Source: Escherichia coli
GTDB lineage: Bacteria; Pseudomonadota; Gammaproteobacteria; Enterobacterales; Enterobacteriaceae
Length of the DNA: 352 bases
Reading direction: 5' to 3' (one strand)
Assembly: GCF_003334335.1 (NCBI RefSeq)
Contig: NZ_QOWQ01000209.1
The stretch's first letter is position 1. Each line of letters opens with the position of its first letter. Both the position numbers and the translations under genes were made by a program. A model generated the notes under the pieces. That model saw only the letters and a list, made by a program, of their open reading frames with translations, ran no database searches and had not been told where the DNA came from. Positions 1 through 352 of this stretch are shown one piece after another.

Positions 1-130
1 GCGTCACCCTGAACTGATGTTCCGTCACCCGGAAAACGAGTACGACTGGCTGAGCTCAGACGCCGCTGTGGATGAGGTCCTGCTCATCAACGAATACACC
101 TTTACCGAAGCCGGTCTGCGCGCCGGCTGA
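1..130 (+). CDS. 3' end of an upstream ORF, 5'-truncated by the window edge; product not recognised (hypothetical protein). Codon phase starts at nt 2; TGA stop at 128-130.
   Basis: Frame 2 is the only + frame open across 2-127 (42 codons: RHPELMFRHPENEYDWLSSDAAVDEVLLINEYTFTEAGLRAG*); frames 1 and 3 hit stops within the first 20 nt. In K-12 CP4-type islands the gene immediately upstream of the antitoxin is a small DUF987 ORF (yeeT/ykfH), but this C-terminus does not resemble what I recall of those proteins, so the family is left open. Confidence 0.55.
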   Translation, partial: RHPELMFRHPENEYDWLSSDAAVDEVLLINEYTFTEAGLRAG

Positions 131-152
131 CCCGTCATCGTTAAACTATCAT
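127..152 (+). promoter_or_regulatory. Weak candidate sigma70-like promoter: -35-like CTGACC (127-132), -10-like TATCAT (147-152), spacer 14 nt (suboptimal).
   Basis: Hexamer resemblance only (4/6 and 5/6 to consensus) at a position that would give a ~25-30 nt leader for the downstream GTG start. The short spacer makes this speculative; the downstream gene may instead be co-transcribed with the upstream ORF. Confidence 0.15.
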
Positions 153-167
153 TCACCGATTTTCTGT

Positions 168-172
168 GAGGA
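168..172 (+). promoter_or_regulatory. Shine-Dalgarno / ribosome-binding site (GAGGA) for the downstream CDS
   Basis: GAGGA at 168-172 lies 7 nt upstream of the GTG at 180-182, which is canonical spacing, in an AT-rich leader. Confidence 0.7.
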
Positions 173-179
173 TTTTATC

Positions 180-352
180 GTGTCAGACACACTTTCCGGG
201 ACAACGCATCCCGATGACAATGACGACCATCCCTGGTGGGGACTACCCTGCACAGTGACGCCCTGTTTCGGCGCCCGTCTGGTGCAGGAGGGTAACCGCC
301 TGCATTACCTTGCCGACCGCGCCGGTATCAGAGGCCTGTTCAGCGATGCAGA
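180..352 (+). CDS. cbeA: N-terminal part (57 codons) of a CbeA/YeeU-family antitoxin (YeeU/YafW/YfjZ family, cytoskeleton-bundling type IV antitoxin); 3'-truncated by the window edge
   Basis: GTG start at 180 preceded by a GAGGA RBS; the frame stays open to the window end. The translation matches, from recall, the N-terminus of E. coli YeeU/CbeA (MSDTLPGTT..PWWGLPCTVTPCFGARLVQEGNRLHYLADRAGIRG.FSDAD) with a few substitutions, and contains the GARLVQEGN.LHYLADRA core shared with YafW and YfjZ. The gene symbol denotes family membership; this may be a paralog rather than the K-12 yeeU locus itself. Confidence 0.85.
   Translation, partial: MSDTLSGTTHPDDNDDHPWWGLPCTVTPCFGARLVQEGNRLHYLADRAGIRGLFSDA

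Follow-up and report, generated by a model that had tools for sequence, protein, structure and literature searches.

A variable acidic N-terminal tail outside the conserved fold of a widely distributed, island-borne YeeU-family antitoxin of Escherichia coli

The window analyzed here, a stretch of 352 nucleotides of Escherichia coli DNA, spans the boundary between a DUF987 gene resembling yeeT and an antitoxin gene of the YeeU/CbeA family in a CP4-44-like integrative island (Table 1). A first-pass annotation had drawn attention to the segment THPDDNDDHP near the N-terminus of the antitoxin, as a more acidic version of the corresponding part of K-12 YeeU (CbeA). Our analysis indicates that the segment probably belongs to a weakly constrained, flexible acidic tail on a paralogous, island-borne copy of the gene, and that it represents a common allele and not a new feature. 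Translation of the GTG-initiated frame gave T9-H-P-D-D-N-D-D-H-P18 (first base of codon 9 at 204, final base of codon 18 at 233), in agreement with the annotation. The K-12 segment given in the annotation was exact, as the translation of MG1655 cbeA reads VSDTLPGTTLPDDNHDRPWWGLP... with TLPDDNHDRP at the equivalent residues. The greater acidity was also borne out, with a net charge of the tail of −5 in the window allele and −3 in K-12. The annotation had named one outcome in which there would be nothing unusual, namely identity to a widely distributed reference allele together with an imprecise K-12 sequence. The K-12 sequence contained no error, but the allele in the window is itself one of very wide distribution, and therefore the feature is ordinary and already catalogued, even though the observation is confirmed and its interpretation supported.

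Table 1. Features of the 352-nt window (positions are those of the window)
Feature	Position	Strand	Basis
DUF987 (YeeT-like) gene, final codons and TGA stop (15–17)	1..17	+	RefSeq CDS end; alignment
3′ remnant of a deleted 214-aa gene (final 37 codons and stop)	18..130	+	Alignment to locus L050
GAGGA Shine-Dalgarno sequence of the antitoxin gene	169..173	+	Direct sequence reading
YeeU/CbeA-family type IV antitoxin gene, 5′ part (codons 1–57 and two bases; GTG start)	180..352	+	
Hypervariable acidic N-terminal tail, codons 4–18	189..233	+	Entropy, variants, dN/dS, pLDDT, position outside PF06154
Segment singled out by the first-pass annotation, codons 9–18	204..233	+	Translation
Conserved CbeA_antitoxin domain, beginning (from P18/WWGLP)	231..352	+	PF06154, residues 18–117

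Many complete E. coli genomes (at least 40 among the matches listed) match the window over its entire length with 100% identity, and 222 records are at least 99% identical to it. Chromosomes with 100% identity include those of O26:H11 11368, O103, O145:H28 and a range of other strains, both commensal and clinical. At an identical locus the RefSeq name of the product is ‘type IV toxin-antitoxin system YeeU family antitoxin’ (WP_001315620.1), and the exact 122-aa protein, which has a RefSeq MULTISPECIES entry, was found on at least 1000 contigs. Of 5426 complete E. coli genomes, 1807 (about a third) contain the 46 nt coding for the tail (196–241) at ≥99% identity and 2712 contain the K-12 equivalent, whereas the whole antitoxin gene was present at ≥99% identity in only 214. 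One tail is therefore joined to several gene bodies. The antitoxin family as a whole is present in 4857 of these genomes (total 5426), the median copy number being three and the maximum 14, and the copies number ∼13,000 in all. The allele is already a named RefSeq protein, and good descriptions exist of its family, its fold and the context of its gene.

In O26:H11 11368, the order of the island is Ag43, IS600, IrmA, DUF905, DUF932, antirestriction, RadC/JAB, DUF987 and YeeU, followed by a CbtA-family toxin, DUF5983, DUF957 and DUF4942. The toxin CDS (CbtA family, PF06755), whose product is WP_000854753.1, begins 89 nt downstream of the antitoxin at this 100%-identical locus, beyond the end of the window. 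The island adjoins nanC and fimB, whereas K-12 cbeA, located in CP4-44, adjoins tmaR/yeeA. The window gene is not cbeA proper (the ortholog of K-12 b2004 in CP4-44): its product is 93% identical to CbeA with another tail and C-terminus, the yeeT–yeeU spacer is different, and the PGAP label is ‘YeeU family antitoxin’. It is a paralogous or allelic island-borne copy in a CP4-44-like module away from the K-12 cbeA site, in line with the earlier suggestion of a distinct paralog or allele.

The tail lies outside the conserved antitoxin domain. The full-length protein from an identical locus (L001; the window itself encodes residues 1–57) matched the Pfam family PF06154 (CbeA_antitoxin) with E = 5.6e-53, with residues 18–117 aligned to model positions 1–100 of 101. 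The sequence also matched PDB entries 2h28 (E = 3.7e-76) and 2inw, and the YfjZ structures align to the antitoxin starting at residue 19. In an AlphaFold2 model of the antitoxin, for which the alignment included divergent homologs from an exhaustive search, the mean pLDDT was 84.5, with values of 91–96 in the core blocks. The pLDDT was below 50 across residues 1–16, and no secondary structure was predicted before residue 29. A first model, based on a shallow alignment of close relatives, had a pLDDT of 63 with residues 1–51 below 50 and was discarded as uninformative. When the retained model was superimposed on 2h28 with Foldseek, the rmsd was 1.0–1.1 Å (for chain B, 1.0 Å over 103 columns, with a target-normalized TM of 0.96 and E = 6e-19), and on the basis of this comparison the protein is predicted to adopt the YeeU fold.

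The lengths of the crystallized chains provide a further view of the tail. In the Foldseek library, the chains of 2h28 (E. coli YeeU) comprise 104 and 109 residues, from a 122-residue protein plus tag, and most chains of 2inw (Shigella YeeU) comprise 116–117 residues, with extra columns that fit the model poorly (rmsd 7.5 Å). Judged from these chain lengths rather than from coordinates, the tail appears to be unseen in the 2h28 crystal and ordered in another conformation in 2inw, as would be expected of a flexible tail. By the same measure, the 2inw chains indicate that the tail can become ordered. Together with the AlphaFold2 model, this describes a tail that is flexible, predicted to be disordered and located outside the conserved CbeA_antitoxin fold, where the first-pass annotation had suggested that it might lie.

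The tail is also the variable part of the family, as had been proposed from its absence in YafW and YfjZ. The family members retrieved carry 38 different E. coli-type tails, all of them net acidic (−1 to −5), and the variant with THPDDNDDHP is at the acidic extreme and among the two most frequent. Asp, Asn, His, Pro, Thr and Ser are abundant in the tail. Within the E. coli group, the column entropy is 0.82 bits for residues 4–18, five times the 0.17 bits of residues 19–117, and reaches 1.12 bits for the final five residues. Amino-acid variation affects 11 of 15 sites in the tail and 24 of 99 in the core (Fisher p = 3e-4). Mean pairwise dN/dS, calculated from the 11 alleles with DNA, is 0.49 for the tail and 0.16 for the core, and sites with replacement variation outnumber those with silent variation only by 11:2 in the tail, as against 24:23 for the core (p = 0.054). 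The seven differences between the window and K-12 in codons 19–57, as read from the alignment, are all synonymous. This variability has limits, as M-S-D, P11, D12, N14 and P18 are near-fixed in the E. coli group, and W19, W20, G21 and L22, with which the domain begins, are near-invariant or invariant. The near-fixed residues, the net acidity of all variants and a dN/dS value under 1 make some function for the acidic tail likely.

Indels in the tail comprise whole codons (−1, −2 and −5). In an E. albertii allele (L006, minus strand), the five codons for PGTTL, located between the two TLP repeats of the K-12 tail (DTLPGTTLPDD), are absent, which suggests that the tail holds a short duplication that may be lost again. 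In two proteins, P0109 and P0119, the tail is read in the +1 frame (…PGQRIPTTITTA…; equivalent to window 195–245), and the frame is restored before GLPCTVTPCF. Each variant was deposited as a single sequence and represents either a frameshift that is compensated and that the tail tolerates, or an artifact of sequencing or of a pseudogene. Other Enterobacterales have different tails (MSNK..HDIAEPWWGLK, MNNHSESGTKPEN..QQWGLK) or none. The N-terminal architectures were collected by scanning contigs with a conserved 21-mer, which yielded 38 loci, mostly from other Enterobacterales and short-tailed paralogs, with few E. coli-type alleles.

YeeU-type antitoxins vary not only at the N-terminal tail but also at the last five residues. 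Residues 118–122 (L001 8531–8545, beyond the window) are as variable as the tail, with the forms ETKK, EMKN, ATATTS, APATTS and ETESNPPE, and these C-terminal forms combine freely with different N-terminal tails. The downstream CbtA-family toxins have a variable N-terminal segment as well, with two main types, PDTHVREAS.C and PVLPGQAASSR (MKTLPDTHVREAS.C.SPVT and MKTLPVLPGQAASSRPSPVE; L001 8638–9012, L002 5570–5944, L043, L044 and L046–L049). In the small sample of eight loci in which the two genes were compared, no association was found between the tail and the toxin type, and every class of antitoxin tail was seen beside both types of toxin and in combination with differing antitoxin C-termini. 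At one further locus (L045 1867–2328), no intact CbtA-family ORF was annotated or detected between the antitoxin (P0070, with a tail one codon shorter) and DUF5983; a disruption of the toxin may have left the antitoxin there as an orphan. Recombination has redistributed the tail variants over different gene bodies and toxin types, giving a mosaic structure, and the tail is therefore unsuitable as an orthology marker when these multi-copy modules are typed or aligned.

In the reading that we prefer, residues 9–18 are part of an 18-residue tail preceding the CbeA_antitoxin fold, which starts at about W19, and the gene belongs to one of the CP4-44-like integrative islands, several of which are present in most E. 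coli. The folded domain most likely carries the antitoxin activity, because YafW and YfjZ, which have no tail, are reported to neutralize their toxins (PMC5371832) and because K-12 CbeA is reported to counter CbtA through FtsZ/MreB binding and filament bundling and not through toxin binding (PMC5624674, PMC5086665). This type IV mechanism has been described solely for K-12 CbeA. We infer that the tail is dispensable for core antitoxin activity and that the four substitutions relative to K-12 would be near-neutral, with little functional effect. The tail would evolve under relaxed, but not absent, constraint and would be swapped between gene copies by recombination; this combination of relaxed constraint and recombinational exchange would explain why so many tail variants exist. 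The literature consulted contained no experiments on the antitoxin tail.

The same variability could be read as a sign of adaptation. The tail would then determine specificity or insulation and be subject to diversifying selection, tuning which toxin or cytoskeletal target state each antitoxin counteracts, and the extra acidity of the THPDDNDDHP variant would matter functionally. We consider this unlikely. Replacement variation is concentrated at positions 6, 7, 9, 10, 15 and 17, on a conserved P-D-x-N-x-x-x-P scaffold. Site-specific positive selection at these positions would be compatible with the data, and the excess of amino-acid-variable over silent-only sites in the tail is likewise consistent with diversifying selection acting on a small number of sites. 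The many co-resident copies held by most genomes would provide a setting for such selection. However, the mean dN/dS of the tail remains below 1, and the type of tail does not follow the N-terminal type of the toxin in the eight loci, with SGTTHP and HETN tails found next to both. Moreover, the tail-less paralogs are working antitoxins, and YfjZ even cross-neutralizes YkfI (PMC5371832), while FtsZ and MreB, on which K-12 CbeA is reported to act instead of the toxin (PMC5624674), are invariant in E. coli. The more far-reaching proposal, in which the tail is a rapidly diversifying specificity module that lets co-resident CbtA/YeeU modules act independently and the DDNDD variant is a distinct functional class, seems to us distinctly improbable; such independence could arise, for example, through tuned engagement of FtsZ/MreB filaments or of the module's own toxin. 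A tail that sets specificity among co-resident modules would be of interest to toxin-antitoxin specialists, but nothing in the present data requires it.

Proteases typically enter antitoxins at disordered termini, and the predicted disorder of the tail would suit a regulatory handle, either as a protease recognition or stability element of a labile antitoxin or as a signal for transfer through a conjugative type IV secretion system (T4SS), with variants that alter half-life or export. There is, in our judgment, very little chance that this is its role. The sequence contains no match to those known degrons that could be tested, and the literature search returned no data on CbeA proteolysis. CbeA was recovered among proteins translocated through an F-type T4SS, but so were YfjZ and YagB, which have no long tail (PMC11288057); this argues that T4SS transfer does not require the long tail.

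That the start codon is misannotated, so that translation begins downstream and the tail variation is merely that of a non-coding leader, is scarcely credible: the start is GTG and not ATG, and the paralogs begin ∼14 codons later relative to the domain, but GAGGA is located six bases 5′ of the GTG at 180, GTG TCA GAC opens each of the 11 alleles whose DNA sequences were compared, the next in-frame candidate (GTG at codon 26) would remove the near-invariant WWGLP motif, the tail indels preserve the frame with a dN/dS below 1, and the 2inw chains of 116–117 residues must include tail residues. The antitoxin reading frame is real, as follows from the position of the Shine-Dalgarno sequence, which is kept in K-12 (AAGGA context) and in L050, and from the conserved opening codons. 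The translation of 180–350 begins VSDTLSGTTHPDDNDDHPWWGLPCTVTPCFGARLVQEGN, and the 57 antitoxin codons from the GTG encode VSDTLSGTTHPDDNDDHPWWGLPCTVTPCFGARLVQEGNRLHYLADRAGIRGLFSDA. Scans for other elements in the window were negative. With permissive E-values, no Rfam RNA element was detected, the scores for SECIS_2 (14 bits) and engA (11 bits) being at chance level and far under the gathering scores. No terminator was found, and the only promoter-like site is a weak one on the minus strand. Minus-strand ORFs are short and unsupported. The flagged segment contains no meaningful repeats, and a repeat search of the window gave short chance-level ones besides a 12-nt direct repeat.

The spacer of 162 nt between the DUF987 stop codon and the antitoxin GTG is not ordinary intergenic DNA. 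The DUF987 CDS (WP_000692345.1) ends at L001 8017, which corresponds to window position 17 of this identical locus, and window 1–17 was also aligned to the end of the DUF987 gene in L050. Window 18–200 aligns to L050 1201–1383, with 169 of 183 bases identical. In L050 and other islands, a 645-nt gene (214 aa; L050 669–1313) is present between DUF987 and yeeU. Its product is labeled in RefSeq as ‘DUF8835 domain-containing protein’ or ‘antitoxin of toxin-antitoxin stability system’; despite the DUF8835 label, it had no match in the copy of Pfam that was searched, and an NCBIfam scan of the antitoxin, the 214-aa neighbor and the 37-aa ORF described below was likewise negative. Relative to L050, the window has a clean 550-bp deletion that has taken out nucleotides 1–532 of the 645-nt gene and left the last 113 nt, along with the adjoining downstream spacer, so the window spacer holds a 3′ remnant of the deleted gene. 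In K-12, an independent deletion of ∼640 bp keeps just the first 25 nt of the 214-aa gene.

A 37-aa ORF (17–130, with its ATG at 17), which is deposited as a hypothetical protein (e.g. Q8VQQ1_ECOLX) and occurs on at least 1000 contigs, is the C-terminal remnant of the 214-aa gene. Its ATG overlaps the TGA stop codon of DUF987 (TGATG at 15–19), and this overlap could allow coupled translation of the putative remnant peptide. The 12-nt direct repeat, at 2–13 and 23–34 (CGTCACCCTGAA / CGTCACCCGGAA), flanks the deletion junction at 17/18 and may be related to the origin of the deletion. Single ORFs of 196–212 aa that are predicted to encode fusions of DUF987 (PF06174) and YeeU (PF06154) are present in some assemblies (P0051, P0061 and P0068); they apparently arise from deletions that join yeeT in frame to the yeeU leader.

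The known systems closest to the window allele include K-12 CbeA (YeeU; CP4-44; PDB 2h28), the type IV antitoxin of CbtA. Both proteins have 122 residues and the PF06154 fold, both genes have a GTG start and the same Shine-Dalgarno context, and both are arranged in the order DUF987, antitoxin, CbtA-family toxin and DUF5983. The window allele differs from K-12 in the tail by P6S, L10H, H15D and R17H, and its full-length protein differs near the C-terminus by S105G, C107G, D108G, M120T and N122K. The upstream spacer is 73 nt in K-12 and 162 nt in the window, and the cognate toxin of the window allele (O26:H11 11368) is 88% identical to that of K-12, with a different N-terminal segment. Shigella flexneri YeeU (Q83JN9, PDB 2inw) is likewise long-tailed and has the PDDNHDRPWWGLP motif, with ∼90% identity over the aligned region. 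However, its tail reads TTPPDDNHDRP, several core substitutions are present, and most tail residues appear to be modeled in the 2inw crystal. YfjZ (CP4-57; PDB 2ea9 and 2jn7), YafW (CP4-6) and YagB share the Pfam family and the fold, with 60–65% identity in the domain. YfjZ and YafW adjoin CbtA-family toxins, whereas YagB is an orphan. Unlike the window allele, these three proteins have no 14-residue tail, begin 2–7 residues before the WGL motif and have shorter C-terminal ends. In the multiple alignment YafW and YfjZ both start just before this motif with the 14 residues absent, in agreement with the first-pass annotation that both lack the segment.
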